Source of the DNA: Escherichia coli
GTDB taxonomy: Bacteria; Pseudomonadota; Gammaproteobacteria; Enterobacterales; Enterobacteriaceae
DNA length: 64,000 nucleotides
Assembly (NCBI RefSeq): GCF_016026235.1
Contig: NZ_CP065613.1
Direction: 5' to 3' (one strand)
The translations under genes and the position numbers were made by a program. Each line of letters starts with the position of its first letter. Positions within the stretch are counted from its first letter, which is position 1. A model generated the notes under the pieces. The model saw only the letters and a list, made by a program, of their open reading frames with translations. It did not search any database and was not told the origin of the DNA. Shown here piece after piece: positions 1,830-56,496 of the stretch.

Positions 1830-1834
1830 CATAA

Positions 1835-20756: not shown

Positions 20757-20782
20757 CCACTACAGTTTAAGGAAATGCAAAT

Positions 20783-21340: not shown

Positions 21341-21489
21341 TCTTTTTGTTCTGTAAGCCGGGTAAGCGCAATGCGCCCAGCAATCCATAAAGAATGTCGC
21401 CAGAAATAAACGGGCATACGGCCCGGGGATCTCTGCGCCCTGACGTTCACAAACTGCATATATCTGATAGACGTGAAACAGGAGTCATA

Positions 21490-22977: not shown

Positions 22978-22978
22978 A

Positions 22979-24259
22979 ATGACCGAACATACCAGCAGTT
23001 ATTACGCCGCCAGTGCGCATAAATACGCGCCATTCGACACGCTGAATGAGTCAATCACCTGCGACGTTTGCGTGGTCGGCGGCGGCTATACCGGGCTGTC
23101 TTCCGCGCTACATCTGGCGGAAGCGGGCTTTGACGTAGTGGTTCTCGAAGCCTCACGCATCGGCTTTGGCGCCAGCGGACGCAACGGCGGACAGCTTGTG
23201 AACTCCTACAGCCGCGACATTGACGTGATCGAAAAAAGCTACGGCATGGACACCGCCCGTATGCTCGGCAGCATGATGTTTGAGGGTGGTGAGATCATCC
23301 GCGAACGTATCAAACGTTATCAGATTGACTGCGACTACCGCCCCGGCGGTCTGTTTGTGGCGATGAATGATAAACAGCTCGCCACACTTGAAGAGCAGAA
23401 AGAGAACTGGGAACGCTACGGCAATAAACAGCTGGAGATGCTGGACGCCAACGCCATTCGCCGCGAGGTCGCCAGCGATCGCTACACTGGTGCGCTGCTG
23501 GATCACAGCGGCGGGCATATTCACCCGCTGAACCTCGCCATTGGTGAAGCGGACGCTATCCGCCTGAACGGCGGGCGCGTGTATGAGCTTTCCGCAGTGA
23601 CGCAGATCCAGCACACCACGCCCGCCGTAGTGCGTACAGCCACAGGTCAGGTGACGGCGAAGTATGTGATTGTCGCCGGGAATGCCTACCTGGGCGATAA
23701 AGTGGAGCCGGAGCTGGCGAAACGCAGCATGCCGTGCGGCACGCAGGTGATCACCACCGAGCGGCTGTCGGAAGATTTAGCCCGTTCCCTTATCCCGAAA
23801 AACTACTGTGTGGAAGACTGTAACTATCTGCTTGATTACTATCGTCTTACCGCCGATAACCGCCTGCTGTATGGCGGCGGCGTAGTGTACGGCGCGCGCG
23901 ACCCGGATGACGTTGAGCGTCTTGTGGTGCCGAAACTGCTGAAAACCTTCCCGCAGTTGAAGGGCGTGAAAATCGACTATCGCTGGACGGGCAACTTCCT
24001 GCTGACCCTGTCACGGATGCCGCAGTTTGGTCGCCTCGATACCAACATCTATTACATGCAGGGTTACAGCGGCCACGGCGTCACCTGTACTCATCTCGCC
24101 GGACGTTTGATTGCCGAACTGCTGCGCGGCGACGCCGAACGTTTCGATGCCTTCGCCAATCTGCCGCATTACCCGTTCCCCGGCGGGCGCACACTGCGTG
24201 TGCCGTTTACCGCGATGGGCGCGGCTTATTACAGCCTGCGCGATCGTCTGGGCGTTTAA
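22979..24259 (+). CDS. puuB: Gamma-glutamylputrescine oxidase (FAD)
   Basis: 426 aa; FAD-binding GxGxxG (VVGGGYTGLS). Confidence 0.9.
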   Translation: MTEHTSSYYAASAHKYAPFDTLNESITCDVCVVGGGYTGLSSALHLAEAGFDVVVLEASRIGFGASGRNGGQLVNSYSRDIDVIEKSYGMDTARMLGSMMFEGGEIIRERIKRYQIDCDYRPGGLFVAMNDKQLATLEEQKENWERYGNKQLEMLDANAIRREVASDRYTGALLDHSGGHIHPLNLAIGEADAIRLNGGRVYELSAVTQIQHTTPAVVRTATGQVTAKYVIVAGNAYLGDKVEPELAKRSMPCGTQVITTERLSEDLARSLIPKNYCVEDCNYLLDYYRLTADNRLLYGGGVVYGARDPDDVERLVVPKLLKTFPQLKGVKIDYRWTGNFLLTLSRMPQFGRLDTNIYYMQGYSGHGVTCTHLAGRLIAELLRGDAERFDAFANLPHYPFPGGRTLRVPFTAMGAAYYSLRDRLGV

Positions 24260-24296
24260 TTTCCGATTAACAGTGAAGAGTCAAAAGGTGTGAAAC

Positions 24297-25562
24297 ATGA
24301 GCAACAATGAATTCCATCAGCGTCGTCTTTCTGCCACCCCGCGCGGGGTTGGCGTGATGTGTAACTTCTTCGCCCAGTCGGCTGAAAACGCCACGCTGAA
24401 GGATGTTGAGGGCAACGAGTACATCGATTTTGCCGCAGGCATTGCGGTGCTGAATACCGGGCATCGCCACCCTGAACTGGTCGCGGCGGTGGAGCAGCAA
24501 CTGCAACAGTTTACCCACACCGCGTACCAGATTGTGCCGTATGAAAGCTACGTCACCCTGGCGGAGAAAATCAATGCCCTTGCGCCGGTGAGCGGGCAGG
24601 CTAAAACCGCGTTCTTCACCACCGGTGCGGAAGCGGTGGAAAACGCGGTGAAAATCGCCCGCGCCCATACCGGACGCCCTGGCGTGATTGCGTTTAGCGG
24701 CGGCTTTCACGGTCGTACGTATATGACTATGGCGTTAACTGGAAAGGTCGCGCCGTACAAAATCGGCTTCGGCCCGTTCCCTGGTTCGGTGTATCACGTA
24801 CCTTATCCGTCAGATTTACACGGCATTTCAACACAGGACTCCCTCGACGCCATCGAACGCTTGTTTAAATCAGACATCGAAGCGAAGCAGGTCGCGGCCA
24901 TTATTTTCGAACCGGTGCAGGGCGAGGGCGGTTTCAACGTTGCGCCAAAAGAGCTGGTTGCCGCCATTCGCCGCCTGTGCGACGAGCACGGTATTGTGAT
25001 GATTGCTGATGAAGTGCAAAGCGGCTTTGCGCGTACCGGTAAGCTGTTTGCCATGGATCATTACGCCGATAAGCCGGATTTAATGACGATGGCGAAAAGC
25101 CTCGCGGGCGGGATGCCGCTTTCGGGCGTGGTCGGTAACGCGAATATTATGGACGCACCCGCGCCGGGCGGGCTTGGCGGCACCTACGCCGGTAACCCGC
25201 TGGCGGTGGCTGCCGCGCACGCGGTGCTCAACATTATCGACAAAGAATCACTCTGTGAACGCGCGAATCAACTGGGCCAGCGTCTGACAAACACGCTGAT
25301 TGATGCCAAAGAAAGCGTTCCGGCCATCGCGGCGGTACGCGGTCTGGGGTCTATGATCGCGGCTGAGTTTAACGATCCGCAAACGGGCGAACCGTCAGCG
25401 GCGATTGCGCAGAAAATCCAGCAACGCGCGCTGGCGCAGGGGCTGCTTCTGCTGACCTGTGGCGCATACGGCAACGTGATTCGTTTCCTGTATCCGCTGA
25501 CCATCCCGGATGCGCAATTCGATGCGGCAATGAAAATTTTGCAGGATGCGCTGAGCGATTAA
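24297..25562 (+). CDS. puuE: 4-aminobutyrate aminotransferase (PLP)
   Basis: 421 aa; class III aminotransferase. Confidence 0.9.
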   Translation: MSNNEFHQRRLSATPRGVGVMCNFFAQSAENATLKDVEGNEYIDFAAGIAVLNTGHRHPELVAAVEQQLQQFTHTAYQIVPYESYVTLAEKINALAPVSGQAKTAFFTTGAEAVENAVKIARAHTGRPGVIAFSGGFHGRTYMTMALTGKVAPYKIGFGPFPGSVYHVPYPSDLHGISTQDSLDAIERLFKSDIEAKQVAAIIFEPVQGEGGFNVAPKELVAAIRRLCDEHGIVMIADEVQSGFARTGKLFAMDHYADKPDLMTMAKSLAGGMPLSGVVGNANIMDAPAPGGLGGTYAGNPLAVAAAHAVLNIIDKESLCERANQLGQRLTNTLIDAKESVPAIAAVRGLGSMIAAEFNDPQTGEPSAAIAQKIQQRALAQGLLLLTCGAYGNVIRFLYPLTIPDAQFDAAMKILQDALSD

Positions 25563-28959: not shown

Positions 28960-30639
28960 ATGAAACAGAAAATTACGGATTACCTGGACGAAATCTACGA
29001 TGGAACATTTACCGCAACTCATTTACAGAAACTTGTAACGCGTCTTGAGAGTGCGAAACGATTAATTACACAGCGACGTAAAAAACACTGGGATGAAAGT
29101 GATGTCGTGTTAATTACCTATGCCGATCAATTTCACAGCAATGATTTAAAACCATTACCCACATTTAATCAGTTTTACCATCAATGGCTGCAAAGCATTT
29201 TTTCACATGTTCATTTGTTGCCGTTTTATCCATGGTCATCTGATGATGGCTTTTCGGTAATTGATTATCATCAGGTCGCCAGTGAAGCGGGGGAGTGGCA
29301 GGATATTCAGCAACTCGGTGAATGCAGTCATTTAATGTTTGATTTTGTCTGCAACCATATGTCGGCAAAAAGTGAATGGTTTAAAAACTATTTACAACAG
29401 CATCCAGGTTTTGAAGATTTTTTTATTGCCGTTGACCCGCAAACCGATCTCAGCGCCGTCACTCGCCCGCGTGCGTTACCGTTATTAACGCCATTCCAGA
29501 TGCGCGATCATTCAACGCGCCATTTATGGACCACCTTTAGTGACGATCAAATTGACCTGAATTACCGTAGCCCTGAAGTGTTGCTGGCGATGGTGGATGT
29601 TTTACTCTGTTACCTTGCGAAAGGTGCTGAGTATGTCCGCCTGGATGCCGTTGGCTTTATGTGGAAAGAGCCGGGAACAAGCTGCATCCATCTGGAAAAA
29701 ACACATCTGATTATCAAACTGTTACGGTCGATTATTGATAACGTTGCGCCAGGTACAGTGATCATTACCGAGACCAATGTTCCGCATAAAGACAACATTG
29801 CTTACTTTGGCGCAGGCGATGACGAAGCACATATGGTGTACCAGTTCTCGCTGCCGCCACTGGTGCTGCATGCGGTGCAAAAACAGAACGTTGAGGCGCT
29901 TTGTGCGTGGGCGCAAAACCTGACACTACCTTCCAGCAACACCACCTGGTTTAACTTCCTCGCCTCTCACGATGGCATCGGGCTAAACCCGCTACGGGGC
30001 TTGTTGCCTGAAAGCGAAATATTAGAGCTGGTCGAGGCGTTACAGCAGGAAGGTGCATTAGTAAACTGGAAAAATAATCCCGACGGTACACGCAGTCCGT
30101 ATGAAATAAATGTGACCTATATGGATGCGTTAAGCCGCCGTGAGAGTAGCGATGAAGAACGTTGCGCCAGGTTTATTCTCGCCCATGCGATTTTGTTAAG
30201 TTTCCCCGGTGTGCCAGCGATATATATTCAAAGTATTCTTGGCTCGCGTAATGATTACGCAGGTGTCGAAAAACTCGGATATAACCGTGCGATTAACCGT
30301 AAAAAATATCACAGTAAAGAGATAACCCGAGAACTGAACGATGAAGCTACATTAAGGCATGCGGTATATCATGAGTTGTCGCGTTTAATTACACTTCGTC
30401 GCAGCCATAACGAGTTTCATCCGGATAATAATTTTACCATCGATACGATTAATTCATCCGTAATGCGTATTCAAAGAAGTAACGCTGATGGTAATTGTCT
30501 GACTGGATTGTTTAATGTCAGTAAAAATATTCAGCATGTAAATATTACTAATCTGCATGGTCGGGATCTGATTAGTGAAGTTGATATATTGGGTAATGAA
30601 ATAACGCTGCGCCCCTGGCAGGTTATGTGGATTAAATAA
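28960..30639 (+). CDS. ycjM: GH13_18 sucrose-phosphorylase-like glycoside phosphorylase (glucosylglycerate phosphorylase)
   Basis: ORF 28933..30639; start at MKQKITDYLDE. Confidence 0.88.
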   Translation: MKQKITDYLDEIYDGTFTATHLQKLVTRLESAKRLITQRRKKHWDESDVVLITYADQFHSNDLKPLPTFNQFYHQWLQSIFSHVHLLPFYPWSSDDGFSVIDYHQVASEAGEWQDIQQLGECSHLMFDFVCNHMSAKSEWFKNYLQQHPGFEDFFIAVDPQTDLSAVTRPRALPLLTPFQMRDHSTRHLWTTFSDDQIDLNYRSPEVLLAMVDVLLCYLAKGAEYVRLDAVGFMWKEPGTSCIHLEKTHLIIKLLRSIIDNVAPGTVIITETNVPHKDNIAYFGAGDDEAHMVYQFSLPPLVLHAVQKQNVEALCAWAQNLTLPSSNTTWFNFLASHDGIGLNPLRGLLPESEILELVEALQQEGALVNWKNNPDGTRSPYEINVTYMDALSRRESSDEERCARFILAHAILLSFPGVPAIYIQSILGSRNDYAGVEKLGYNRAINRKKYHSKEITRELNDEATLRHAVYHELSRLITLRRSHNEFHPDNNFTIDTINSSVMRIQRSNADGNCLTGLFNVSKNIQHVNITNLHGRDLISEVDILGNEITLRPWQVMWIK

Positions 30640-30652
30640 AAAGGAACATCTC

Positions 30653-31945
30653 ATGATTAAATCAAAAATCGTGCTGTTATCAGCACTGGTTTCCTGCGCC
30701 CTGATTTCAGGCTGTAAAGAAGAAAATAAAACGAATGTATCCATCGAATTTATGCATTCTTCGGTGGAGCAGGAGCGCCAGGCCGTTATCAGTAAATTGA
30801 TTGCCCGTTTTGAAAAAGAAAACCCTGGCATCACCGTTAAGCAAGTGCCCGTGGAAGAAGATGCCTATAACACTAAAGTCATTACTCTTTCACGTAGCGG
30901 TTCGCTGCCGGAAGTGATCGAAACCAGCCATGACTACGCCAAAGTGATGGACAAAGAGCAGCTTATCGATCGCAAAGCGGTTGCCACAGTCATCAGCAAC
31001 GTTGGTGAAGGCGCGTTTTACGATGGCGTACTGCGTATTGTGCGTACCGAAGATGGTAGCGCATGGACCGGTGTTCCTGTCAGCGCCTGGATTGGCGGTA
31101 TCTGGTATCGCAAAGATGTGCTGGCAAAAGCGGGGCTTGAGGAGCCGAAAAACTGGCAACAGCTGCTGGACGTTGCACAGAAACTGAATGACCCGGCGAA
31201 TAAAAAATACGGCATTGCGCTGCCTACAGCAGAAAGCGTGTTGACGGAACAATCCTTCTCCCAGTTTGCGTTATCCAACCAGGCTAACGTCTTTAACGCC
31301 GAAGGCAAAATCACCCTTGATACACCAGAGATGATGCAGGCACTGACCTATTACCGCGACCTTGCTGCCAACACTATGCCGGGTTCTAACGACATCATGG
31401 AAGTGAAAGACGCCTTTATGAACGGCACCGCGCCGATGGCGATTTACTCCACCTATATCCTTCCGGCTGTGATTAAAGAAGGCGACCCGAAAAACGTCGG
31501 TTTCGTGGTGCCAACCGAGAAAAACTCTGCGGTCTACGGCATGTTGACCTCGCTGACCATTACCGCCGGGCAAAAGACCGAAGAGACGGAAGCAGCAGAA
31601 AAATTTGTCACCTTTATGGAGCAGGCAGACAACATTGCCGACTGGGTGATGATGTCGCCAGGTGCTGCGCTGCCGGTGAATAAAGCGGTTGTCACTACCG
31701 CCACCTGGAAAGACAACGACGTTATTAAGGCGCTGGGTGAACTACCGAATCAGCTAATCGGTGAACTGCCAAATATTCAGGTCTTTGGTGCAGTAGGGGA
31801 TAAAAACTTTACCCGCATGGGTGATGTGACGGGTTCTGGCGTGGTGAGCTCCATGGTGCATAACGTCACCGTGGGTAAAGCCGATCTCCCTGGCACGCTG
31901 CAAGCGAGCCAGAAAAAGCTGGATGAACTGATCGAACAGCACTAA
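30653..31945 (+). CDS. ycjN: Sugar ABC transporter periplasmic binding protein
   Basis: 430 aa; lipoprotein-type signal (LISGC). Confidence 0.9.
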   Translation: MIKSKIVLLSALVSCALISGCKEENKTNVSIEFMHSSVEQERQAVISKLIARFEKENPGITVKQVPVEEDAYNTKVITLSRSGSLPEVIETSHDYAKVMDKEQLIDRKAVATVISNVGEGAFYDGVLRIVRTEDGSAWTGVPVSAWIGGIWYRKDVLAKAGLEEPKNWQQLLDVAQKLNDPANKKYGIALPTAESVLTEQSFSQFALSNQANVFNAEGKITLDTPEMMQALTYYRDLAANTMPGSNDIMEVKDAFMNGTAPMAIYSTYILPAVIKEGDPKNVGFVVPTEKNSAVYGMLTSLTITAGQKTEETEAAEKFVTFMEQADNIADWVMMSPGAALPVNKAVVTTATWKDNDVIKALGELPNQLIGELPNIQVFGAVGDKNFTRMGDVTGSGVVSSMVHNVTVGKADLPGTLQASQKKLDELIEQH

Positions 31946-31965
31946 ACCCAGGACAGGAATCCGCA

Positions 31966-32847
31966 ATGAACAGGCTTTTTTCAGGTCGTTCCGATATGCC
32001 CTTTGCGCTGCTGCTTCTCGCGCCCAGCTTATTACTGCTGGGTGGTCTGGTGGCCTGGCCAATGGTGTCGAATATCGAAATCAGTTTTTTACGTCTGCCG
32101 CTCAATCCCAACATCGAGTCAACCTTTGTTGGGGTGAGTAACTATGTGCGTATCCTCTCCGAGCCCGGCTTCTGGCACTCGCTGTGGATGACGGTCTGGT
32201 ATACCGCGCTGGTGGTGGCGGGCAGCACCGTCCTCGGGCTGGCAGTGGCGATGTTTTTCAACCGCGAGTTCCGCCTGCGCAAAACCGCGCGTTCGCTGGT
32301 GATCCTCTCCTACGTAACGCCGTCCATTTCGCTGGTGTTTGCCTGGAAATACATGTTCAACAACGGCTACGGCATTGTGAACTACCTCGGCGTCGATCTT
32401 CTGCATCTCTATGAGCAGGCACCACTGTGGTTCGATAATCCGGGCAGTAGCTTTGTGCTGGTGGTGCTGTTCGCCATCTGGCGCTACTTCCCGTATGCCT
32501 TTATCTCGTTTCTGGCGATTTTGCAGACCATCGACAAATCGCTGTACGAAGCGGCAGAGATGGATGGCGCTAATGCCTGGCAACGGTTTCGTATCGTCAC
32601 GCTGCCCGCGATTATGCCGGTCCTGGCGACGGTGGTGACCCTGCGCACCATCTGGATGTTCTACATGTTCGCGGATGTTTATTTGCTGACGACCAAGGTC
32701 GATATTCTCGGTGTATATCTCTACAAAACCGCCTTTGCCTTTAATGACTTAGGGAAAGCGGCGGCGATCTCGGTGGTGCTATTCATCATTATTTTCGCTG
32801 TCATTCTGCTGACCAGAAAACGGGTGAACCTCAATGGCAACAAATAA
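31966..32847 (+). CDS. ycjO: Sugar ABC transporter permease
   Basis: 293 aa; MalF/G-type permease. Confidence 0.9.
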   Translation: MNRLFSGRSDMPFALLLLAPSLLLLGGLVAWPMVSNIEISFLRLPLNPNIESTFVGVSNYVRILSEPGFWHSLWMTVWYTALVVAGSTVLGLAVAMFFNREFRLRKTARSLVILSYVTPSISLVFAWKYMFNNGYGIVNYLGVDLLHLYEQAPLWFDNPGSSFVLVVLFAIWRYFPYAFISFLAILQTIDKSLYEAAEMDGANAWQRFRIVTLPAIMPVLATVVTLRTIWMFYMFADVYLLTTKVDILGVYLYKTAFAFNDLGKAAAISVVLFIIIFAVILLTRKRVNLNGNK

Positions 32848-33676
32848 ACGCACACTCAGTCGCATCGGTTTTTACTGCGGGCTGGCGCTGTTTCTCATCA
32901 TCACGCTATTTCCGTTTTTTGTGATGCTGATGACCTCGTTCAAGGGCGCGAAAGAGGCGATCTCACTGCATCCTACGCTGCTGCCGCAGCAGTGGACGCT
33001 GGAGCATTACGTCGACATTTTTAACCCGATGATTTTCCCGTTTGTCGACTACTTCCGTAACAGTCTGGTGGTGTCGGTGGTTTCATCCGTGGTGGCGGTA
33101 TTCCTCGGCATTCTTGGGGCTTACGCGCTTTCCCGCCTGCGCTTTAAAGGTCGGATGACCATCAATGCCAGCTTTTACACGGTGTATATGTTCTCTGGCA
33201 TTTTGCTGGTGGTGCCGCTGTTCAAAATCATCACCGCGCTGGGCATTTACGACACCGAGATGGCGCTGATCATCACCATGGTGACGCAAACTCTGCCCAC
33301 CGCCGTGTTTATGCTGAAAAGCTACTTCGACACCATCCCCGATGAGATCGAAGAAGCGGCGATGATGGATGGCCTCAACCGTCTGCAAATTATCTTCCGC
33401 ATCACCGTGCCGTTGGCGATGTCCGGGCTGATATCCGTGTTCGTCTACTGCTTTATGGTGGCGTGGAACGACTATCTGTTTGCGTCGATTTTCCTCTCCA
33501 GCGCCAGCAATTTCACCTTACCGGTGGGCCTGAACGCGCTGTTCAGTACGCCAGATTACATCTGGGGACGGATGATGGCGGCCTCACTGGTGACCGCATT
33601 GCCGGTGGTGATTATGTATGCGCTTTCGGAACGTTTTATTAAGAGTGGTTTGACCGCCGGTGGCGTGAAGGGCTAA
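32834..33676 (+). CDS. ycjP: Sugar ABC transporter permease
   Basis: 280 aa; overlaps the ycjO end. Confidence 0.9.
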   Translation: MATNKRTLSRIGFYCGLALFLIITLFPFFVMLMTSFKGAKEAISLHPTLLPQQWTLEHYVDIFNPMIFPFVDYFRNSLVVSVVSSVVAVFLGILGAYALSRLRFKGRMTINASFYTVYMFSGILLVVPLFKIITALGIYDTEMALIITMVTQTLPTAVFMLKSYFDTIPDEIEEAAMMDGLNRLQIIFRITVPLAMSGLISVFVYCFMVAWNDYLFASIFLSSASNFTLPVGLNALFSTPDYIWGRMMAASLVTALPVVIMYALSERFIKSGLTAGGVKG

Positions 33677-33706
33677 AGCGGCCAGTTTCTTTACAAGGAG
33701 TTTTAA

Positions 33707-34759
33707 ATGAAAAAGTTAGTAGCCACAGCACCCCGTGTTGCTGCGCTGGTTGAGTATGAAGATCGGGCGATTTTAGCCAATGAAGTGAAAATCCGCGTGC
33801 GTTTCGGCGCACCGAAACACGGAACGGAAGTGGTCGACTTCCGCGCCGCCAGCCCGTTTATCGATGAAGACTTTAACGGCGAATGGCAGATGTTCACTCC
33901 GCGTCCGGCAGATGCGCCGCGCGGCATTGAGTTTGGCAAATTCCAGCTTGGCAACATGGTGGTTGGCGACATTATCGAGTGCGGCAGCGACGTTACCGAC
34001 TACGCGGTGGGCGACAGCGTATGCGGCTACGGCCCGCTCTCCGAGACGGTCATCATTAACGCGGTGAATAACTACAAGCTGCGCAAAATGCCGGAAGGCA
34101 GCTCGTGGGAAAACGCCGTTTGTTACGACCCGGCGCAGTTTGCCATGAGCGGCGTGCGCGATGCCAACGTGCGCGTGGGTGATTTTGTTGTGGTGGTAGG
34201 GCTTGGCGCGATTGGTCAAATTGCCATTCAACTGGCGAAACGCGCTGGCGCGTCGGTCGTGATTGGCGTCGATCCTATCGCCCATCGCTGTGATATTGCC
34301 CGTCGCCACGGCGCGGATTTCTGCCTTAACCCCATTGGTACTGACGTAGGCAAAGAGATCAAAACGCTGACCGGCAAGCAGGGTGCCGATGTGATTATCG
34401 AAACCAGCGGCTATGCCGACGCGCTGCAATCGGCGTTCCGCGGTCTGGCCTACGGTGGCACCATCTCCTATGTCGCGTTTGCCAAACCATTTGCTGAAGG
34501 TTTTAACCTCGGACGCGAAGCGCATTTCAATAACGCCAAAATTGTTTTCTCCCGCGCGTGCAGCGAACCGAACCCGGATTATCCGCGCTGGAGCCGTAAG
34601 CGTATTGAAGAAACCTGCTGGGAACTGCTGATGAACGGTTATCTCAATTGCGAAGATTTAATCGACCCGGTAGTGACCTTTGCCAATAGCCCGGAAAGCT
34701 ACATGCAGTATGTCGATCAGCATCCGGAACAGAGCATCAAAATGGGCGTTACGTTTTAA
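33707..34759 (+). CDS. ycjQ: Zn-dependent medium-chain sugar dehydrogenase
   Basis: 350 aa; MDR family with GLGAIG Rossmann motif. Confidence 0.9.
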   Translation: MKKLVATAPRVAALVEYEDRAILANEVKIRVRFGAPKHGTEVVDFRAASPFIDEDFNGEWQMFTPRPADAPRGIEFGKFQLGNMVVGDIIECGSDVTDYAVGDSVCGYGPLSETVIINAVNNYKLRKMPEGSSWENAVCYDPAQFAMSGVRDANVRVGDFVVVVGLGAIGQIAIQLAKRAGASVVIGVDPIAHRCDIARRHGADFCLNPIGTDVGKEIKTLTGKQGADVIIETSGYADALQSAFRGLAYGGTISYVAFAKPFAEGFNLGREAHFNNAKIVFSRACSEPNPDYPRWSRKRIEETCWELLMNGYLNCEDLIDPVVTFANSPESYMQYVDQHPEQSIKMGVTF

Positions 34760-34776
34760 TTCAAAGGAATGAAAAA

Positions 34777-35565
34777 ATGAAAATAGGCACACAGAATCAG
34801 GCATTCTTTCCGGAAAACATTCTGGAGAAATTTCGTTATATCAAAGAGATGGGCTTCGATGGTTTTGAGATTGACGGCAAACTGCTGGTCAACAATCTCG
34901 AAGAAGTCAAAGCAGCAATCAAAGAAACCGGTTTACCGGTGACCACCGCCTGCGGTGGCTATGACGGTTGGATTGGCGACTTTATCGAAGAGCGTCGTCT
35001 TAATGGCTTAAAGCAGATCGAACGCATTCTCGAAGCGCTGGCAGAAGTGGGGGGTAAGGGTATCGTCGTTCCGGCAGCGTGGGGCATGTTTACCTTCCGC
35101 TTACCGCCGATGACCTCGCCGCGTAGCCTGGACGGCGACCGCAAAATGGTGAGTGATTCCCTGCGCGTACTGGAACAGGTCGCCGCGCGTACCGGAACCG
35201 TGGTGTATCTCGAACCGTTAAACCGCTATCAGGATCATATGATCAACACCCTCGCCGATGCCCGCCGTTACATCGTCGAAAACGATCTTAAACATGTACA
35301 GATTATCGGCGATTTCTATCACATGAATATCGAAGAAGATAACCTGGCGCAGGCGCTGCATGACAACCGCGACCTGCTCGGTCATGTGCATATTGCGGAT
35401 AACCATCGCTACCAGCCGGGCAGCGGCACCCTGGATTTCCACGCGCTGTTTGAACAGCTGCGCGCGGATAACTATCAGGGCTATGTAGTGTACGAAGGGC
35501 GTATCCGGGCGGAAGATCCTGCCCAGGCGTACCGTGATTCGTTGGCCTGGTTGCGTACCTGCTAA
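34777..35565 (+). CDS. ycjR: Sugar phosphate isomerase/epimerase (TIM barrel)
   Basis: 262 aa. Confidence 0.9.
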   Translation: MKIGTQNQAFFPENILEKFRYIKEMGFDGFEIDGKLLVNNLEEVKAAIKETGLPVTTACGGYDGWIGDFIEERRLNGLKQIERILEALAEVGGKGIVVPAAWGMFTFRLPPMTSPRSLDGDRKMVSDSLRVLEQVAARTGTVVYLEPLNRYQDHMINTLADARRYIVENDLKHVQIIGDFYHMNIEEDNLAQALHDNRDLLGHVHIADNHRYQPGSGTLDFHALFEQLRADNYQGYVVYEGRIRAEDPAQAYRDSLAWLRTC

Positions 35566-35574
35566 GAGGTCTTT

Positions 35575-36630
35575 GTGAAAAGTGCAATGACAAGCTCTCC
35601 GCTGCGGGTCGCGATAATAGGCGCAGGCCAAGTGGCGGATAAGGTTCATGCTTCGTACTACTGCACCCGCAACGATCTGGAACTGGTGGCTGTCTGTGAC
35701 AGCCGCCTTTCCCAGGCGCAGGCGCTGGCAGATAAATACGGTAATGCATCCGTGTGGGACGATCCGCAGGCCATGCTGCTGGCGGTGAAACCTGATGTGG
35801 TTAGCGTCTGCTCACCTAACCGTTTTCATTACGAACATACCCTGATGGCACTGGAAGCGGGCTGCCATGTGATGTGCGAAAAACCGCCCGCCATGACGCC
35901 AGAACAGGCGCGGGAAATGTGCGATACCGCGCGCAAACTGGGCAAGGTGCTGGCCTACGACTTTCACCATCGTTTTGCGCTCGATACGCAACAGCTGCGT
36001 GAACAGGTGACCAACGGCGTTTTGGGAGAGATTTACGTTACCACCGCCCGCGCCCTGCGTCGCTGCGGCGTTCCCGGCTGGGGCGTCTTTACCAATAAAG
36101 AACTGCAGGGTGGTGGCCCGCTGATCGACATCGGCATTCATATGCTGGATGCTGCGATGTATGTGCTGGGCTTTCCGGCGGTGAAAAGCGTGAATGCGCA
36201 TAGCTTTCAAAAGATCGGCACGCAAAAGAGCTGTGGTCAATTTGGCGAGTGGGATCCGGCAACTTATAGCGTCGAAGATTCGCTGTTTGGCACCATTGAA
36301 TTTCATAACGGCGGCATTCTGTGGCTGGAAACGTCATTTGCACTCAACATCCGCGAACAGTCGATTATGAACGTCAGCTTTTGTGGTGATAAAGCCGGTG
36401 CGACGCTGTTTCCAGCACATATCTACACCGATAACAACGGTGAATTAATGACGCTGATGCAACGGGAAATGGCAGACGACAACCGCCATTTGCGCAGCAT
36501 GGAAGCCTTTATCAATCACGTACAGGGCAAGCCCGTGATGATAGCCGACGCCGAGCAGGGGTACATCATCCAGCAACTGGTGGCGGCGTTGTATCAATCC
36601 GCAGAAACAGGGACGCGTGTGGAATTATGA
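35575..36630 (+). CDS. ycjS: Gfo/Idh/MocA-family NAD-dependent oxidoreductase
   Basis: 351 aa; N-terminal Rossmann LRVAIIGAGQVA. Confidence 0.9.
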   Translation: MKSAMTSSPLRVAIIGAGQVADKVHASYYCTRNDLELVAVCDSRLSQAQALADKYGNASVWDDPQAMLLAVKPDVVSVCSPNRFHYEHTLMALEAGCHVMCEKPPAMTPEQAREMCDTARKLGKVLAYDFHHRFALDTQQLREQVTNGVLGEIYVTTARALRRCGVPGWGVFTNKELQGGGPLIDIGIHMLDAAMYVLGFPAVKSVNAHSFQKIGTQKSCGQFGEWDPATYSVEDSLFGTIEFHNGGILWLETSFALNIREQSIMNVSFCGDKAGATLFPAHIYTDNNGELMTLMQREMADDNRHLRSMEAFINHVQGKPVMIADAEQGYIIQQLVAALYQSAETGTRVEL

Positions 36631-38894
36631 CCAGGCCAGTAACGTTATCAGAACCCCATTTCAGCCAGCATACCCTGAACAAGTATGCATCGCTGATGGC
36701 GCAGGGGAACGGCTATCTTGGGCTTCGCGCCAGCCATGAAGAAGATTACACGCGCCAGACGCGAGGGATGTATCTGGCGGGGCTGTATCATCGGGCGGGA
36801 AAAGGTGAAATCAACGAACTGGTGAACCTGCCTGATATCTTGGGGATGGAGATTGCCATAAATGGTGAGGTTTTCTCGTTATCCCGCGAAGCCTGGCAGC
36901 GTGAACTTGACTTTGCCAGTGGAGAATTACGCCGTAGCGTTGTCTGGCGTACCAGCAACGGCACAGGTTACACCATCGCCAGCCGTCGCTTTGTTTCGGC
37001 AGACCAACTGCCGCTCATTGTGCTGGAAATCACTATTACGCCACTGGACGCCGACGCGTCAGTGCTGATTTCAACAGGTATCGACGCTACGCAAACCAAC
37101 CACGGTCGCCAACATCTCGACGAAACCCAGGTGCGGGTGTTTGGTCAGCATCTGATGCAGGGGATCTACACCACCCAGGATGGACGCAGTGATGTGGCCA
37201 TCAGCTGTTGCTGTATGGTGAGCGGTGATGTGCAGCAATGCTATACCGCCAAAGAGCGCCGTTTGCAGCAACATACCAGTGCGCAGCTTCATGCAGGCGA
37301 GACAGTGACGTTGCAAAAACTGGTGTGGATCGACTGGCGGGATGACAGGCAAGCCGTTTTAGACGAGTGGGGCAGCGCGTCGCTTCGCCAGCTTGAAATG
37401 TGCGCGCAGCAGAGTTACGACCAACTTCTTGCAGTATCAACAGAAAACTGGCGTCAATGGTGGCAGAAACGTCGTATCACGGTAAATGGCGGCGAAGCGC
37501 ACGATCAGCAAGCGTTAGATTATGCGCTTTATCATCTGCGCATCATGACGCCTGCCCACGACGAGCGCAGCAGCATTGCGGCAAAAGGCTTAACCGGCGA
37601 AGGCTACAAAGGCCACGTTTTCTGGGATACAGAAGTATTTTTGTTACCGTTTCATCTGTTTAGCGATCCGACGGTTGCCCGAAGTTTACTGCGTTATCGC
37701 TGGCACAACTTGCCAGGCGCGCAGGAGAAAGCGCGACGCAACGGCTGGCAGGGCGCGCTATTTCCGTGGGAAAGCGCGCGCAGCGGCGAAGAAGAGACGC
37801 CGGAATTTGCCGCCATTAACATTCGCACCGGGCTGCGGCAAAAAGTGGCCTCGGCGCAGGCGGAACATCATCTGGTGGCCGATATCGCCTGGGCGGTTAT
37901 TCAATACTGGCAGACCACGGGGGATGAAAGTTTCATTGCGCATGAAGGCATGGCGCTACTTCTGGAAACTGCAAAGTTCTGGATTAGCCGCGCGGTGAGG
38001 GTTAACGACCGTCTGGAAATTCATGATGTTATTGGGCCTGACGAATATACCGAACATGTCAATAATAACGCCTTCACCAGCTATATGGCGTATTACAACG
38101 TCCAGCAGGCGCTGAGTATTGCCCGCCAGTTTGGCTGTAGCGACGATGCGTTTATCCATCGCGCCGAAATGTTCCTTAAAGAACTGCGGCTGCCAGAAAT
38201 TCAGCCCGACGGCGTTTTGCCGCAGGATGATTCGTTTATGGCTAAGCCGGCGATTAATCTGGCGAAATACAAAGCGGCGGCGGGGAAGCAAACCATTCTG
38301 CTGGATTATTCACGCGCAGAAGTGAACGAGATGCAAATCCTCAAACAAGCTGATGTGGTGATGCTCAATTACATGCTGCCGGAGCAGTTCTCAGCGGCAT
38401 CGTGTCTTGCCAATCTGCAATTTTATGAACCGCGCACTATTCACGACTCGTCATTAAGTAAAGCAATCCACGGCATTGTTGCCGCACGCTGTGGCCTGCT
38501 GACCCAAAGTTATCAGTTCTGGCGCGAGGGGACTGAAATCGATCTTGGTGCTGATCCGCATAGTTGTGATGATGGTATCCATGCTGCCGCAACTGGCGCT
38601 ATCTGGCTGGGGGCGATTCAGGGTTTTGCCGGGGTGAGCGTGCGTGACGGTGAATTGCATCTCAATCCGGCGTTACCTGAGCAGTGGCAACAGTTGTCTT
38701 TCCCTCTGTTCTGGCAGGGCTGCGAATTACAGGTCACGCTCGACGCGCAGCGTATTGCGATTCGAACTTCTGCGCCCGTTTCACTGCGTTTGAACGGGCA
38801 GCTTATATCCGTGGCTGAAGAATCTGTTTTCTGTTTGGGTGATTTTATTTTGCCCTTCAATGGGACCGCTACCACACATCAGGAGGATGAATGA
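36627..38894 (+). CDS. ycjT: GH65 glycoside phosphorylase (kojibiose phosphorylase)
   Basis: 755 aa; start overlaps the ycjS stop. Confidence 0.9.
38860..38875. promoter_or_regulatory. Candidate YcjW operator 2, inside the 3' end of ycjT and upstream of ycjU
   Basis: Exact copy of ATGGGACCGCTACCAC, 16 bp upstream of the ycjU ATG. Confidence 0.55.
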
Positions 38895-39550
38895 AACTGC
38901 AAGGGGTAATTTTCGATCTGGATGGTGTAATCACCGATACCGCGCATCTGCATTTCCAGGCGTGGCAGCAGATTGCCGCTGAAATTGGCATCAGCATTGA
39001 TGCGCAGTTTAACGAATCCCTAAAAGGGATCAGCCGCGATGAGTCTCTGCGGCGCATTCTGCAACACGGGGGCAAAGAGGGCGACTTTAACTCGCAGGAG
39101 AGGGCGCAACTGGCGTATCGCAAAAATCTGCTCTATGTCCACTCACTGCGCGAGTTGACGGTCAACGCTGTTCTACCCGGCATTCGCTCTTTGCTGGCAG
39201 ATCTCCGTGCACAGCAGATCCCGGTTGGGCTGGCTTCTGTCTCCCTGAATGCGCCGACGATTTTAGCGGCGCTGGAGCTGCGCGAGTTTTTCACCTTCTG
39301 CGCGGATGCTTCCCAACTTAAAAACTCGAAACCGGACCCGGAAATCTTTCTCGCCGCCTGTGCAGGGCTGGGCGTGCCGCCGCAGGCATGTATCGGCATT
39401 GAAGATGCGCAGGCGGGCATTGACGCCATTAACGCCAGCGGTATGCGCTCGGTGGGGATCGGCGCGGGCATAACCGGGGCGCAATTACTATTGCCTTCAA
39501 CGGACTCCCTGACCTGGTCGCGGTTATCGGCCTTCTGGCAAAACGTATAG
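38891..39550 (+). CDS. ycjU: Beta-phosphoglucomutase (HAD superfamily)
   Basis: 219 aa; HAD motif I ([10 protein letters not shown]). Confidence 0.9.
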
Positions 39551-39563: not shown

Positions 39564-40646
39564 ATGGCTCAGCTTTCGTTACAACATATTCAAAAAATCT
39601 ACGATAACCAGGTGCATGTGGTGAAGGACTTCAACCTGGAAATTGCCGATAAAGAGTTCATCGTGTTTGTCGGTCCGTCAGGCTGCGGTAAGTCGACCAC
39701 CCTGCGCATGATTGCTGGGCTTGAGGAGATCAGCGGCGGCGATCTGTTGATCGACGGCAAACGAATGAATGACGTTCCAGCCAAAGCACGCAATATAGCG
39801 ATGGTGTTCCAGAACTACGCGTTGTATCCGCATATGACGGTTTACGACAACATGGCGTTTGGCCTGAAGATGCAAAAAATCGCCAAAGAGGTGATTGATG
39901 AGCGGGTGAACTGGGCGGCGCAAATTCTCGGCCTGCGTGAGTACCTGAAACGCAAGCCGGGCGCGCTTTCCGGCGGGCAACGCCAGCGTGTGGCGCTCGG
40001 GCGGGCGATTGTGCGCGAAGCGGGCGTGTTTTTAATGGATGAACCACTCTCTAACCTTGATGCCAAGCTGCGCGTGCAAATGCGCGCAGAGATCAGCAAG
40101 CTGCACCAGAAGCTGAATACCACCATGATCTACGTGACCCACGATCAGACCGAAGCGATGACCATGGCGACGCGGATTGTGATTATGAAGGATGGGATTG
40201 TTCAGCAAGTTGGTGCGCCGAAAACGGTTTATAACCAACCAGCGAATATGTTTGTTGCCGGATTTATTGGATCACCGGCGATGAATTTTATTCGTGGCAC
40301 GATCGATGGCGATAAATTCGTTACGGAAACGCTTAAATTAACCATTCCCGAAGAGAAATTAGCGGTTCTGAAAACACAGGGAAGTTTGCATAAGCCCATC
40401 GTGATGGGAATACGTCCGGAAGATATTCATCCGGACGCGCAAGAGGAAAATAACATTTCCGCCAAAATTAGCGTGGCAGAATTAACCGGTGCGGAATTTA
40501 TGCTCTACACCACGGTTGGGGGGCACGAGTTAGTGGTCCGTGCTGGTGCGTTAAATGATTATCATGCAGGAGAAAATATCACTATTCATTTTGATATGAC
40601 GAAATGTCATTTCTTTGATGCAGAAACGGAAATAGCAATTCGCTAA
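39564..40646 (+). CDS. ycjV: Sugar ABC transporter ATPase (MalK-like), full length
   Basis: 360 aa; Walker A GPSGCGKST, signature LSGGQRQR, C-terminal regulatory domain present. Confidence 0.9.
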   Translation: MAQLSLQHIQKIYDNQVHVVKDFNLEIADKEFIVFVGPSGCGKSTTLRMIAGLEEISGGDLLIDGKRMNDVPAKARNIAMVFQNYALYPHMTVYDNMAFGLKMQKIAKEVIDERVNWAAQILGLREYLKRKPGALSGGQRQRVALGRAIVREAGVFLMDEPLSNLDAKLRVQMRAEISKLHQKLNTTMIYVTHDQTEAMTMATRIVIMKDGIVQQVGAPKTVYNQPANMFVAGFIGSPAMNFIRGTIDGDKFVTETLKLTIPEEKLAVLKTQGSLHKPIVMGIRPEDIHPDAQEENNISAKISVAELTGAEFMLYTTVGGHELVVRAGALNDYHAGENITIHFDMTKCHFFDAETEIAIR

Positions 40647-40690
40647 ATACAGGGGGAAGGCATTCCCCCAGAATAATACAAGGAACAATA

Positions 40691-41596
40691 ATGAAAAAGT
40701 TATTACCCTGTACCGCACTGGTGATGTGTGCGGGAATGGCCTGCGCACAGGCCGAGGAAAAGAACGACTGGCACTTTAATATCGGCGCGATGTACGAAAT
40801 AGAAAACGTCGAGGGTTATGGCGAAGATATGGATGGGCTGGCGGAGCCTTCAGTCTATTTTAATGCCGCCAACGGGCCGTGGAGAATTGCTCTGGCCTAT
40901 TATCAGGAAGGGCCGGTAGATTATAGCGCGGGTAAACGTGGAACGTGGTTTGATCGCCCGGAGCTGGAGGTGCATTATCAGTTCCTCGAAAACGATGATT
41001 TCAGTTTCGGCCTGACCGGCGGTTTCCGTAATTATGGTTATCACTACGTTGATGAACCGGGTAAAGACACGGCGAATATGCAGCGCTGGAAAATCGCGCC
41101 AGACTGGGATGTGAAACTGACTGACGATTTACGTTTCAACGGTTGGTTGTCGATGTATAAATTTGCCAACCATCTGAACACTACCGGTTACGCTGATACC
41201 CGTGTCGAAACGGAAACAGGTCTGCAATATACCTTCAACGAAACGGTTGCCTTGCGAGTGAACTATTATCTCGAGCGCGGCTTCAATATGGACGACAGCC
41301 GCAATAACGGTGAGTTTTCCACGCAAGAAATTCGCGCCTATTTGCCGCTGACGCTCGGCAACCACTCGGTGACGCCGTATACGCGCATTGGGCTGGATCG
41401 CTGGAGTAACTGGGACTGGCAGGATGATATTGAACGTGAAGGCCATGATTTTAACCGTGTAGGTTTATTTTACGGTTATGATTTCCAGAACGGACTTTCC
41501 GTTTCGCTGGAATACGCGTTTGAGTGGCAGGATCACGACGAAGGCGACAGTGATAAATTCCATTATGCAGGTGTCGGCGTAAATTACTCGTTCTGA
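40691..41596 (+). CDS. ompG: Outer membrane porin OmpG
   Basis: 301 aa; signal peptide and beta-barrel ending in a C-terminal aromatic residue (YSF). Confidence 0.9.
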   Translation: MKKLLPCTALVMCAGMACAQAEEKNDWHFNIGAMYEIENVEGYGEDMDGLAEPSVYFNAANGPWRIALAYYQEGPVDYSAGKRGTWFDRPELEVHYQFLENDDFSFGLTGGFRNYGYHYVDEPGKDTANMQRWKIAPDWDVKLTDDLRFNGWLSMYKFANHLNTTGYADTRVETETGLQYTFNETVALRVNYYLERGFNMDDSRNNGEFSTQEIRAYLPLTLGNHSVTPYTRIGLDRWSNWDWQDDIEREGHDFNRVGLFYGYDFQNGLSVSLEYAFEWQDHDEGDSDKFHYAGVGVNYSF

Positions 41597-41706: not shown

Positions 41707-42705
41707 TTATTTCAGCGTCATATGCGTGGCAACGGTAATATTCTGTGGTGACGGTTTTCCAGAAATTAAGCGGAATAATAACTCGCAGCTTTTTTGACCT
41801 AACTCCTGCGTCGGAACATCGATGCCGCCTGGTGCAGGCGTTAAAATAAACGACAGCGTTTCATTACTATAACCCACCACCGCTAACTGCTGCGGAATAG
41901 CAATATTTTTCTCTGCCGCCGCACGATAAATGCTCATTAATTTCAGGCTGTCAGTGGCAAACACTGCCTCAGGCAACGGTGACTGACTTAATAATTGCCG
42001 TGCTGCTTGCAGTGCTGTTTCATGGGTATAACCGCCATCAACAATCCATTCATCACGCACTGCAATATTATGCGCGGACAGACTTTGCTTATAGCCATTA
42101 ACGCGGTCAACCGAAACATGGACATCAAGCGACGCATGCAGACAGGCAATATTTTGATGCCCACTTTCAATTAATGCATCGGTCAACGCAATGCTGTCGC
42201 CAAAATTATCGGTATCGACAGAATAAACATGGGCATATTGACCTTCAACTTTGCCAATCACCACCACAGGAATATCGTATTTATCAAGTTGGGCAAAAAA
42301 TGACTCATCCGCTGGCGAACTTAGCATAATAATGCCTTTAATCATTTTCTGCTTAATTTTGCTTTCACATTTTTGTAAGTCTTCTGCCAGGTTGTGCGAC
42401 GTTTGTAATATCACGTCGAAACCTTCTTCTTCCGCTTTGGCGGTGATGGCATGTAGAACTTCTGAGAAAAACGGATTACCCGCCGTAGTTTTGGTCGAAC
42501 GGGTAGAAATCACCATAATGGCATCAAAACCCGAAGAGGTCAGCGCGCGGGCCAGCTTGTTTGGCTGATACTGTAATTCTTCAATGGCCCGTAACACTTT
42601 TTCGCGCGCTTCCGGGGAGATATTAGTTTGCTTATTCAGCACGCGTGATACGGTGGATTTTGATACGCCTGCAACCCTGGCAATATCATAAATAGTAGGG
42701 GACAT
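41707..42705 (-). CDS. ycjW: LacI-family transcriptional repressor YcjW
   Basis: 332 aa; N-terminal HTH ([21 protein letters not shown]) and periplasmic-binding-protein-like core. Confidence 0.9.
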
Positions 42706-42859: not shown

Positions 42860-44257
42860 ATGAAGCGACTTAAAAATGAACTTAATGCGCTGGTGAATCG
42901 GGGTGTCGACAGACATCTGCGCCTCGCCGTAACCGGACTAAGCCGCAGCGGCAAAACAGCGTTTATCACTGCGATGGTCAATCAGTTGCTCAATATTCAC
43001 GCCGGAGCACGCTTGCCGCTGTTAAGCGCGGTGCGTGAAGAGCGTCTGCTGGGCGTAAAACGCATTCCTCAGCGTGACTTTGGCATTCCGCGCTTCACAT
43101 ATGATGAAGGACTGGCGCAGTTATATGGCGATCCTCCCGCCTGGCCGACGCCTACGCGCGGCGTCAGCGAAATTCGCCTGGCGCTACGCTATAAATCGAA
43201 CGATTCGCTGCTGCGCCACTTTAAGGATACCTCCACGCTGTATCTGGAGATTGTGGATTACCCTGGCGAATGGCTGCTCGACCTGCCGATGCTGGCGCAG
43301 GATTACTTAAGCTGGTCGCGGCAGATGACAGGCTTGCTCAATGGTCAGCGCGGCGTGTGGTCGGCGAAATGGCGGATGATGTGCGAAGGTCTGGACCCGT
43401 TAGCGCCTGCCGACGAAAACCGACTGGCAGACATTGCCGCCGCGTGGACCGATTATCTCCACCACTGTAAACAGCAGGGGCTGCACTTTATTCAGCCTGG
43501 GCGCTTTGTCTTGCCGGGGGATATGGCAGGTGCGCCCGCGCTGCAATTCTTCCCGTGGCCGGATGTCGATGCCTGGGGCGAGTCCAAACTGGCGCAGGCC
43601 GATAAGCACACCAATGCCGGAATGCTGCGCGAGCGGTTTAATTATTACTGCGAGAAGGTGGTGAAGGGGTTCTATAAGAATCATTTTCTGCGCTTTGACC
43701 GCCAGATTGTGCTGGTGGATTGCCTGCAACCTCTCAACAGTGGGCCACAGGCATTTAATGATATGCGTCTGGCACTGACGCAGCTGATGCAAAGTTTCCA
43801 CTACGGGCAGCGCACGCTGTTTCGCCGCTTATTCTCGCCGGTTATCGACAAACTGCTGTTTGCCGCGACGAAAGCGGACCATGTAACGGTCGATCAGCAC
43901 GCCAATATGGTTTCATTACTGCAACAACTGATTCAGGATGCCTGGCAAAATGCGGCGTTTGAAGGGATTAGTATGGATTGCCTGGGGCTGGCCTCGGTGC
44001 AGGCGACCACCAGCGGCATTATTGACGTCAACGGCGAGAAAATTCCGGCATTGCGCGGTAACCGGCTCAGCGATGGTGCGCCTCTCACCGTTTACCCCGG
44101 TGAAGTTCCTGCGCGTTTGCCCGGTCAGGCGTTCTGGGACAAGCAAGGGTTCCAGTTTGAAGCGTTTCGCCCGCAGGTGATGGATGTCGACAAACCACTA
44201 CCGCATATTCGTCTTGATGCTGCGCTGGAATTTTTAATAGGAGATAAATTGCGATGA
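42860..44257 (+). CDS. ycjX: YcjX family P-loop NTPase
   Basis: ORF 42779..44257; start at MKRLKNELN (ATG 42860); Walker A GLSRSGKT. Confidence 0.85.
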
Positions 44258-45315
44258 CCGAACCGTTAAAACCACGTATTGATTTCGACGGTCCGCTGGA
44301 GGTCGATCAGAATCCAAAATTCAGGGCGCAGCAGACCTTTGACGAAAATCAGGCGCAAAATTTTGCCCCGGCCACGCTCGACGAAGCGCAGGAAGAAGAG
44401 GGGCAAGTCGAAGCGGTAATGGACGCAGCGTTACGTCCGAAACGCAGCCTGTGGCGCAAAATGGTGATGGGCGGGCTGGCTCTGTTTGGCGCAAGCGTTG
44501 TCGGGCAGGGCGTGCAGTGGACAATGAATGCCTGGCAAACTCAGGACTGGGTGGCGCTGGGTGGATGTGCCGCTGGGGCATTGATTATCGGCGCTGGCGT
44601 AGGTTCTGTGGTAACAGAGTGGCGGCGCTTATGGCGCTTGCGACAGCGCGCCCATGAACGCGACGAAGCGCGTGATTTATTGCATAGCCACGGAACCGGC
44701 AAAGGCCGCGCATTTTGCGAAAAACTGGCGCAGCAGGCGGGCATCGATCAGTCACATCCGGCGCTGCAACGCTGGTATGCCTCAATCCATGAAACGCAAA
44801 ACGACCGTGAAGTGGTCAGTTTGTATGCGCATTTGGTCCAGCCAGTTTTAGATGCCCAGGCGCGGCGCGAAATCAGCCGTTCGGCAGCGGAATCAACGTT
44901 GATGATTGCGGTCAGCCCGCTGGCGCTGGTGGATATGGCATTTATCGCCTGGCGCAATCTGCGTTTGATTAATCGCATCGCCACGCTGTATGGCATTGAA
45001 CTGGGGTATTACAGCCGTTTGCGCCTGTTCAAGCTGGTATTGCTGAATATCGCTTTCGCCGGAGCCAGCGAATTGGTGCGCGAAGTGGGGATGGACTGGA
45101 TGTCGCAAGATCTCGCTGCTCGTTTGTCTACCCGCGCAGCTCAGGGGATTGGTGCTGGGCTTCTGACTGCACGACTCGGGATTAAAGCTATGGAGCTTTG
45201 CCGCCCACTGCCGTGGATTGACGATGACAAACCTCGCCTCGGGGATTTCCGTCGTCAGCTTATCGGTCAGGTGAAAGAAACGCTGCAAAAAGGCAAAACG
45301 CCCAGCGAAAAATAA
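44254..45315 (+). CDS. ycjF: YcjF family inner membrane protein (DUF697)
   Basis: 353 aa; overlaps the ycjX stop. Confidence 0.85.
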
Positions 45316-45374
45316 TGCAATATCGGGTGCTGACCGGATATCTTTACGCCGAAGTGCCCGTTTTTCCGTCTTTG

Positions 45375-45392
45375 TGTCAATGATTGTTGACA
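45375..45392. promoter_or_regulatory. TyrR box in the tyrR promoter region
   Basis: TGTCAA-TGATTG-TTGACA, a palindrome matching the TGTAAA-N6-TTTACA pattern, 70 bp upstream of the tyrR ATG. Confidence 0.6.
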
Positions 45393-45462
45393 GAAACCTT
45401 CCTGCTATCCAAATAGTGTCATATCATCATATTAATTGTTCTTTTTTCAGGTGAAGGTTCCC

Positions 45463-55203: not shown

Positions 55204-56496
55204 CTGAGGAATCCCCAGAAAACAAGACAGGCATAGTGAGATGTGATCTAATTGATTGTGCTAACAATTTCAAGGAGATCACCACTATGCCTGCACGTTC
55301 ATTATGCCAAAATTTCCTTAACAATATACTGGCCCCTTTGCATCTTTACCGTCAAAAATCACTGATTGACGCAACTAATGCTGTAATAAATGGCGCTTCC
55401 CTCACACTTACCAGTATCGGGCGTCATTTAACCGGTACGGCATCAGTTAAAAACAAAATAAAGCGGGTGGATCGACTGTTGGGGAATCGACATTTGCAAA
55501 ATGAGGTTTCCACCATTTTTCAGCGAATTACCCAAAAGATTACGCGGGGAATGTCTCGTGTTGTGATACTCATTGACTGGAGTGCTTATCATGCCTCTCG
55601 TTTTCAGCTTTTGCGGGCAAGCCTGGCATGTGACGGGCGTTCTTTACCGTTGATGAGTTGTGTCGTTCCATCATCACAGACAGCGAATGCAGATGTACAT
55701 GAGCGTTTTCTGGAATCGCTTGCTGAGTGCTTTTCCCCGGGACTGATGTCATTGTTATTACAGATGCCGGTTTTCAGGGGCGATGGTTCCAACAGCTCCG
55801 CTCCCGTGGCTGGACCTATATTTGCCGGGTACTGGGCAATCATTATTACAATGTTGGTAATGGCTGGGAAAAGGTGTCGGACTCAGGCACAAAAGCATCA
55901 ACGACAGCAATTTATTTAGGTGAAGGCCTGCTGGGTCGAGATAAAAATGCACAACATGAAGGGCATTTTTATCTTTATAAAAGTAAGCCTAAAGGTCGTA
56001 GATTTAAACGCTCGAAGGAAAGAGCAACCAGACCATCGGTGACGGCTAAAGCTCGTACTGCCGGGAAATCACCATGGTTTATTTTCACAAACAGTACTGA
56101 GTTCTCGCCAAAACAGGTAATGAAATTATACAGCCGTAGAATGCAAATTGAGCAAAATTTCAGGGATGAAAAAAATCCTCGCTGGGGATTTGGACTACGG
56201 TTTGGTGCCAGTCATTCATCCGGGCGGGTCACGGTATTGAGTCTGATCGCAACATTAGCCAGTATCATTATGTGGTTAAGCGGTTTCAGCCTGGAAAACA
56301 AAGGGATACATCATAAATATCAGGCAAATACAGTGAAGCACAGGCGAGTCATCTCGTTATTAAAACTGGCGGAGAATGTGATTCGACATTCTCCACTCAT
56401 ACTAAACACACTGTCACTTGACGCAGGGCTGAAAGTTCTACAGCAACGGTATACCAATATGATAATGGTTTACTAAATTTTCTGGGGATCCCTCAG
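55204..56496 (+). mobile_element. IS10-like (IS4-family) insertion sequence, copy 1 (1293 bp)
   Basis: Terminal inverted repeats CTGAGGAATCCCCAGAAAA / TTTTCTGGGGATCCCTCAG; flanked by direct repeat AGATTGTCC(C). Confidence 0.9.
55287..56476 (+). pseudogene. IS10-like transposase, frameshifted (copy 1)
   Basis: Reading frame splits into ORFs 55197..55919 and 55727..56476; C4 run at 55735-55738 where copy 2 has C5. Confidence 0.85.

Follow-up and report, generated by a model that had tools for sequence, protein, structure and literature searches.

The 64-kb stretch of Escherichia coli DNA analysed here (the window) carries a complete ycjV that is very probably the ancestral form of the gene; on this reading K-12 lost one G from it, and the other differences between the two sequences are ordinary lineage events. 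We put the probability of this explanation at roughly 93%. The intact gene tells us more about K-12 than about the window, which simply holds the wild-type state of a gene broken in the reference strain, so that little is gained from the window itself. That ycjV is a pseudogene in K-12 and intact elsewhere is already in the literature, and the differences between window and K-12 that had been listed from the sequence are ordinary, documented strain-to-strain variation.

As reference we used K-12 NC_000913.3, positions 1335000-1410000 with annotation. The entire window was aligned to it by blastn, and every window gene was also compared singly with its K-12 counterpart. Collinearity with the window extends over K-12 1341155-1400392, and two long collinear blocks (window 1-49471) are 98-98.5% identical. 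A sequence-only reading of the window had named several loci that differ from the K-12 annotation; the alignment shows that they do differ and that the reading was right.

ycjV (39564-40646, + strand, ATG to TAA) encodes a complete MalK/MsmX-type ABC transporter ATPase of 360 amino acids. It lies between ycjU/pgmB (38891-39550) and ompG (40691-41596), with ycjW convergent downstream, which is the gene order of the E. coli ycjMNOPQRSTUV-ompG operon; this ycjU-ycjV-ompG-ycjW synteny, combined with 25 differences from K-12 in 1083 nt, identifies it as the orthologue of the K-12 locus. Pfam domains were found for ABC_tran (residues 21-162, 1.3e-31), OB_MalK (236-288, 55 bits vs. a cutoff of 27) and TOBE_2 (282-351, 40 bits vs. 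21). The catalytic motifs are all present: Walker A (GPSGCGKS, 37-44), Q-loop (VFQ, 81-83), LSGGQ (135-139), Walker B (VFLMDE, 155-160) and H-loop (THD, 192-194). YcjV passes the NCBIfam model of the UgpC-type subfamily (NF008653; 484.3 bits, cutoff 432). With the MalK equivalog model NF008233 it scores 431.6 bits, and since this falls below the cutoff of 568 we regard YcjV as a MalK paralogue and not as MalK itself. Bacillus subtilis MsmX (PDB 6YIR), a multitask sugar ABC ATPase, is 65% identical to YcjV over the full length (E = 9e-150) and shares the arrangement of a nucleotide-binding domain followed by C-terminal OB/TOBE domains. However, MsmX belongs to another organism, has other partners and serves several permeases; YcjV may be dedicated to YcjOP. 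E. coli MalK (PDB 1Q12 and others; E = 8e-100) has a YcjV-like fold family and motifs, but its regulatory interactions (MalT, EIIAGlc) cannot be assumed for YcjV. Taken together, the Pfam domains, the ATPase motifs, the UgpC-type score and the identity to MsmX make YcjV a MalK/MsmX-type sugar-importer ATPase. Its partners in the window, the binding-protein gene ycjN and the two BPD_transp_1 permease genes ycjO and ycjP, are intact (30653-33676). Gene order and Pfam content around ycjN, ycjO, ycjP and ycjV are the same in eight other assemblies, and eight unrelated NCBI assemblies with an identical YcjT protein each encode a 360-amino-acid YcjV.

In K-12 the orthologous locus between ycjU (pgmB) and ompG, 1380821-1381902, is annotated as two pseudogenes with a one-base overlap, ycjV' (b1318) and ymjB (b4524). 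It differs from the window gene by 24 substitutions and one indel (97.7% nucleotide identity). The indel sits in a homopolymer run at 40518-40523 (+ strand), GGGGGG in the window and GGGGG in K-12. Being one G short, the K-12 gene is out of frame from codon 319/320 and ends at 322 amino acids; the frameshift cuts TOBE_2, and the protein lacks its final 41 residues, roughly half of the TOBE domain. Judged from the alignment, ymjB is the out-of-frame tail of ycjV, and our literature search found no paper that pairs the two names. Over the first 318 codons there are two amino-acid changes (A232S and G273E). The other 22 substitutions are synonymous, a sign that the full-length frame has long been under purifying selection; the pattern fits a K-12 lesion that would be recent and would have followed a long period of such selection. 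Both the alignment and the NC_000913.3 annotation thus bear out the sequence-only reading, which had taken ycjV to be a K-12 pseudogene that is full length here and had placed the gene exactly. In published work, K-12 ycjV is widely treated as a pseudogene and serves as a neutral integration site (PMC10380740), and it is labelled as a pseudogene in resequencing tables (PMC4786092). The ABC protein encoded by an intact ycjV, which MG1655 lacks, has been described in isolates that are K-12-like but not K-12 (PMC8009128); the same paper cites reports of an involvement of ycjV when EHEC colonises the bovine intestine.

The rest of the operon is also in good order. ycjM, N, O, P, Q, R, S, T and U (28960-39550, + strand) have their K-12 lengths and no internal stops. 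The porin gene ompG (+ strand, 301 amino acids), the last of the operon, is intact with two amino-acid differences from K-12, as is ycjW (41707-42705, - strand, 332 amino acids), the LacI-type repressor of the operon, with five. Thus ycjM-V, ompG and ycjW are all full length relative to K-12, have no premature stops and show 0-19 amino-acid differences. The claim of an intact ycjM-V transporter for kojibiose or glucosides therefore stands at the level of sequence as far as the genes go; its substrate label is putative and was drawn from operon context. YcjW represses ycjM-V-ompG and is released by kojibiose in vitro (PMC6599011). The binding protein YcjN is a lipoprotein; YcjO and YcjP are predicted to form the permease and YcjV to be its ATPase (PMC11543891). 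MG1655 does not grow in minimal medium with kojibiose as sole carbon source, and the natural substrate of the Ycj pathway is still unclear (PMC6599011).

These data are consistent with a model in which the window ycjV would be the ancestral, species-typical gene and the transporter genes would stand under YcjW repression within the ycjMNOPQRSTUV-ompG operon. A YcjV dimer would power the YcjO/YcjP permease and so import a glucoside delivered via OmpG and the lipoprotein YcjN. In K-12, loss of one G from the run of six would have removed about half of the TOBE regulatory domain and impaired transport. From the sequences we infer that YcjV is functional in the window lineage and that the K-12 truncation abolishes transport. 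The truncated transporter ATPase of K-12 is an obvious candidate explanation for the failure of MG1655 on kojibiose; a search of the accessible literature found no paper linking the two. A broader proposal, in which the frameshift is the reason both for that failure and for the substrate of the Ycj pathway having stayed unclear, and in which the G run is a recurrent site of inactivation, is speculative and on balance doubtful. Were it true, strains with an intact 360-amino-acid YcjV, including the window strain, would import the true Ycj substrate. With its transporter ATPase truncated, K-12 serves poorly as a reference strain for work on the Ycj sugar pathway.

The lineage of the window was examined against 5,426 complete RefSeq E. 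coli genomes, a set that does not include Shigella genomes. The best identity in this set over window 24001-49000 was 98.8%, which, with the 98-98.5% to K-12, confirms that the window comes from a non-K-12 lineage, as had been proposed. None of the 5,426 has these IS junctions with matching orientation. The closest relatives that we found are FDAARGOS_943, 99.5-100% identical across alignable blocks from position 40658 of the window onward, and two draft assemblies that carry the same rare YcjX allele (45 blocks of a public collection). A contig of the draft GCA_902503985.1 matches the window at 99.96% identity and ends within ISEc20, at the site found in the window. The YcjT allele is very common (47,665 blocks listed), and an exact YcjT match is for that reason uninformative about lineage. 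The window thus comes from a rare E. coli lineage in which IS elements are expanding. Its identity to K-12 is markedly mosaic in places (16674-25562 and 42860-44257), falling to 93.1% in ycjX, 95.2% in puuB and 95.4% in puuP, while psp, sap and ymjA are 99.5-100% identical to K-12; the mosaic is consistent with recombination tracts.

Such a background invites the view that ycjV is intact only transiently, in a lineage undergoing IS-driven reductive evolution of the Shigella/EIEC kind that no longer uses its ycj system. There are three IS copies in the 64 kb, and mppA and a hydrolase gene are disrupted. FDAARGOS_943 carries 38 ISEc60 places, one of which lies between the ycjV position and ompG and is joined to uidR, a rearrangement. 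This ISEc60 also occurs abundantly in strain CFSAN029787, which we take to be an enteroinvasive E. coli. However, none of the 12 cluster genes is shortened or has a premature stop, amino-acid changes in them are few, and the two relatives that share the rare YcjX allele also keep a 360-amino-acid YcjV. We therefore consider transient survival unlikely and retain the reading of an ancestral, species-typical gene. Selection on the ycj operon may nonetheless be relaxing in the window lineage, since the lineage is IS-rich, mppA and the hydrolase paralogue are disrupted by IS elements, and ompG has been separated from the operon in FDAARGOS_943.

Allele frequencies place the exception on the side of K-12. 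We counted exact matches to a 61-mer spanning the six-G run and to the corresponding K-12 60-mer with five. The six-G probe matched 4,416 of the 5,426 complete genomes and the five-G probe 370; the ycjV probe had no match in 431. Given 4,416 against 370 exact matches, intact ycjV is the species norm and K-12 the exception. The differences pointed out in the sequence-only reading are thus real, but their direction has to be inverted: measured against the species it is K-12 that deviates at ycjV. Among the first 60 five-G genomes listed (370 in total), 57 are K-12 or its laboratory derivatives (such as MG1655, DH5alpha, DH1, C600, J53 and NCM3722). The remaining three are the large pathogenic (STEC) genomes 2014C-3051, 08-00022 and 95-3192. 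RefSeq flags ycjV as 'frameshifted' in the two that we inspected, 2014C-3051 and 08-00022; the former allele has 21 differences from K-12 and six from the window, the latter five from K-12. Five G in these non-K-12 STEC genomes reflects either recurrent slippage or long-read homopolymer assembly error.

The same three genomes bear on whether the run acts as a slip-strand switch that toggles the transporter recurrently, so that K-12 would not carry a one-off lesion. Five G is found on at least three allelic backgrounds, as a switch would predict. On the other hand, six G make a rather short run for a contingency locus, clearly non-K-12 genomes make up only three of the first 60 listed, and long-read homopolymer error explains them equally well; we regard a switch as quite improbable. 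A purely technical origin of the difference, by an error of sequencing or assembly in either the window or K-12, can in effect be dismissed: although a five- or six-G run is a classic error site and the few long-read STEC assemblies with five G could be errors, the six-G state is exact in 4,416 independent genomes, the five-G state recurs in several hundred independently sequenced K-12 derivatives and is curated as two pseudogene features, and the population counts rule out an assembly artefact for K-12 vs. the species. The one-off loss of a G in K-12 is the reading that we keep.

The remaining differences are most probably ordinary lineage-specific events: ymjC/ymjD deletions, probably old, on the K-12-like branch, strain-specific insertions of IS5, ISEc20 and ISEc60, an abg operon that was lost, and an ERIC repeat that is either there or missing. 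Window 49472-52613 stands in place of about 150 bp of K-12 (ymjC/ymjD) by blastn. It includes an intact gene for an SDR/NmrA-like NAD(P)-binding protein (49632-50270, - strand, 212 amino acids; Pfam NAD_binding_10, 3.7e-54, and NmrA, 3.7e-10) that is identical to the protein of strain A16; K-12 ymjC corresponds to its first 139 nt, an N-terminal fragment. Beside it lies an alpha/beta-hydrolase gene, a paralogue of ycjY, which is cut by ISEc20 into a C-terminal part (50291-50870, - strand) and an N-terminal part (52322-52671, - strand). Joining the two parts with the IS removed gives a clean open reading frame of 309 amino acids, which differs from the strain A16 protein at three residues and is 42% identical to YcjY. 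K-12 ymjD is the first 58 nt (about 19 codons) of this gene. ycjY itself (52671-53591, - strand, 306 amino acids) adjoins the paralogue and is intact. The gene-by-gene comparison thus agrees with the earlier view that the NmrA-like gene and the second hydrolase are full length here save for the IS, and fragments in K-12.

To see how widespread these states are, all 5,426 genomes were probed with the intact A16 version, and percentages were taken from evenly sampled rows. The full three-gene form is found in 1,271 of the 5,426 genomes. The SDR gene alone accounts for about 30% of the sampled rows, and a K-12-like double deletion for about 40%, including O104:H4, ATCC 11303 and ETEC strains. The fragment state of ymjC/ymjD is therefore not specific to K-12. 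The counts correct two impressions: intact ycjV is normal, and ymjC/ymjD fragments are common to much of E. coli.

The window contains three IS insertions that K-12 lacks, as had been noted from the sequence; blastn identifies them as one ISEc20 and two ISEc60. Both elements are 99.0-99.8% identical to named RefSeq copies, and their insertion sites are lineage-specific. ISEc20 (IS110 family, about 1449 bp, 50871-52319 with boundaries ± 2 bp, + strand; named from the annotation of matching genomes) lies in a C-run of the hydrolase paralogue. Its transposase (51098-52294) scores 239 bits with the 'RNA-guided transposase' model NF033542 (cutoff 140), and the junction shows a 2-bp ambiguity only, within the C-run, and no long target duplication. 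ISEc20 occupies this site in nine of the 5,426 genomes (three O55:H7-type and six O145:H28) and is missing from it in the near-identical sister genome FDAARGOS_943. The window copy is 99.7% identical to the O55:H7 copy, with flanks at 99.1-99.5%. The distribution suggests independent, sequence-specific insertions at one target.

The first ISEc60 copy (IS4 family, 1291 bp, 55205-56495, + strand; blastn and gene comparison) is inserted in mppA after nt 240 and is flanked by a 12-bp target duplication, GAGATTGTCCCC. Its transposase gene is frameshifted by a 1-bp deletion (C5 to C4 at 55734). mppA (54965-57881), which encodes the murein tripeptide binding protein, is inactivated after codon 80; its neighbours in murein peptide recycling, mpaA and ycjG, are intact. 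The second copy (1292 bp, 62114-63405, + strand) lies in a 3' remnant of abgT with the target duplication GGGTAAATCCCC and encodes an intact transposase of 396 amino acids (62196-63386; NF033591, 360 bits, cutoff 152). The ends of the element are TGAGGAATCCCCAGAAAAC and its near-complement, the duplications are 12 bp at both copies, and the window ISEc60 is 99.8% identical to annotated ISEc60. FDAARGOS_943 has both ISEc60 copies at identical sites with identical 12-bp target duplications and flanks at 99.5-100%, but in the opposite orientation (36802-38095 and 44618-45915 of the segment compared). Independent insertion at strongly preferred targets, inversion in place and an assembly artefact are all possible explanations. 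The targets resemble near-palindromes of a G-run, a spacer and a C-run: GGGGGAAGGCATTCCCCC (40653-40670), GGGGAGATTGTCCCC (55190-55204) and GGGTAAATCCCC (62100-62115). The first of these, in the ycjV-ompG intergenic region, is empty in the window and occupied by ISEc60 in FDAARGOS_943, where the element is joined to uidR and the rearrangement separates ompG from the ycj genes. IS186 has similar GGG...CCCC-type targets, and we considered it as a relative of ISEc60; similarity between the two transposases is limited to a short motif (E = 0.008), and the idea was rejected.

The IS5 copy that K-12 carries between ynaI and ynaJ is missing from the window, again as had been noted. K-12 IS5F (1396044-1397238) has no counterpart; the alignment blocks on either side meet directly, overlapping by 4 bp at an empty CTAA target (59081-59084). 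FDAARGOS_943 has an IS5-family element of about 0.9 kb with a programmed frameshift at 59085-59087. Two different IS5-family elements have thus entered adjacent positions of this spacer (59081-59087), and both sites are empty in the window.

Three differences from K-12 go beyond those read from the sequence at the outset: the disruption of mppA by the first ISEc60, the absence of an ERIC-like element and the loss of abg. The 122-bp ERIC-like repeat of K-12 between puuR and puuC is lacking at 21387-21389 (blastn). About 5 kb of K-12 is missing at abg, comprising most of abgT (its 5' part), abgB, abgA and most of abgR. This cuts the abg operon, for p-aminobenzoyl-glutamate utilisation, down to a 149-nt remnant of the abgT 3' end (63406-63541, - strand; blastn and gene comparison). 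The small RNA McaS (63758-63853, - strand; RF00115, 108.8 bits, gathering score 42) is kept beside the deletion. The sequence between the abgT remnant and McaS is only 81.6% identical to the 3' end of K-12 abgR. In the sister genome FDAARGOS_943, smrA is preceded here by genes for an AraC-family regulator and an HlyD-family protein and by an MFS efflux gene with a frameshift.
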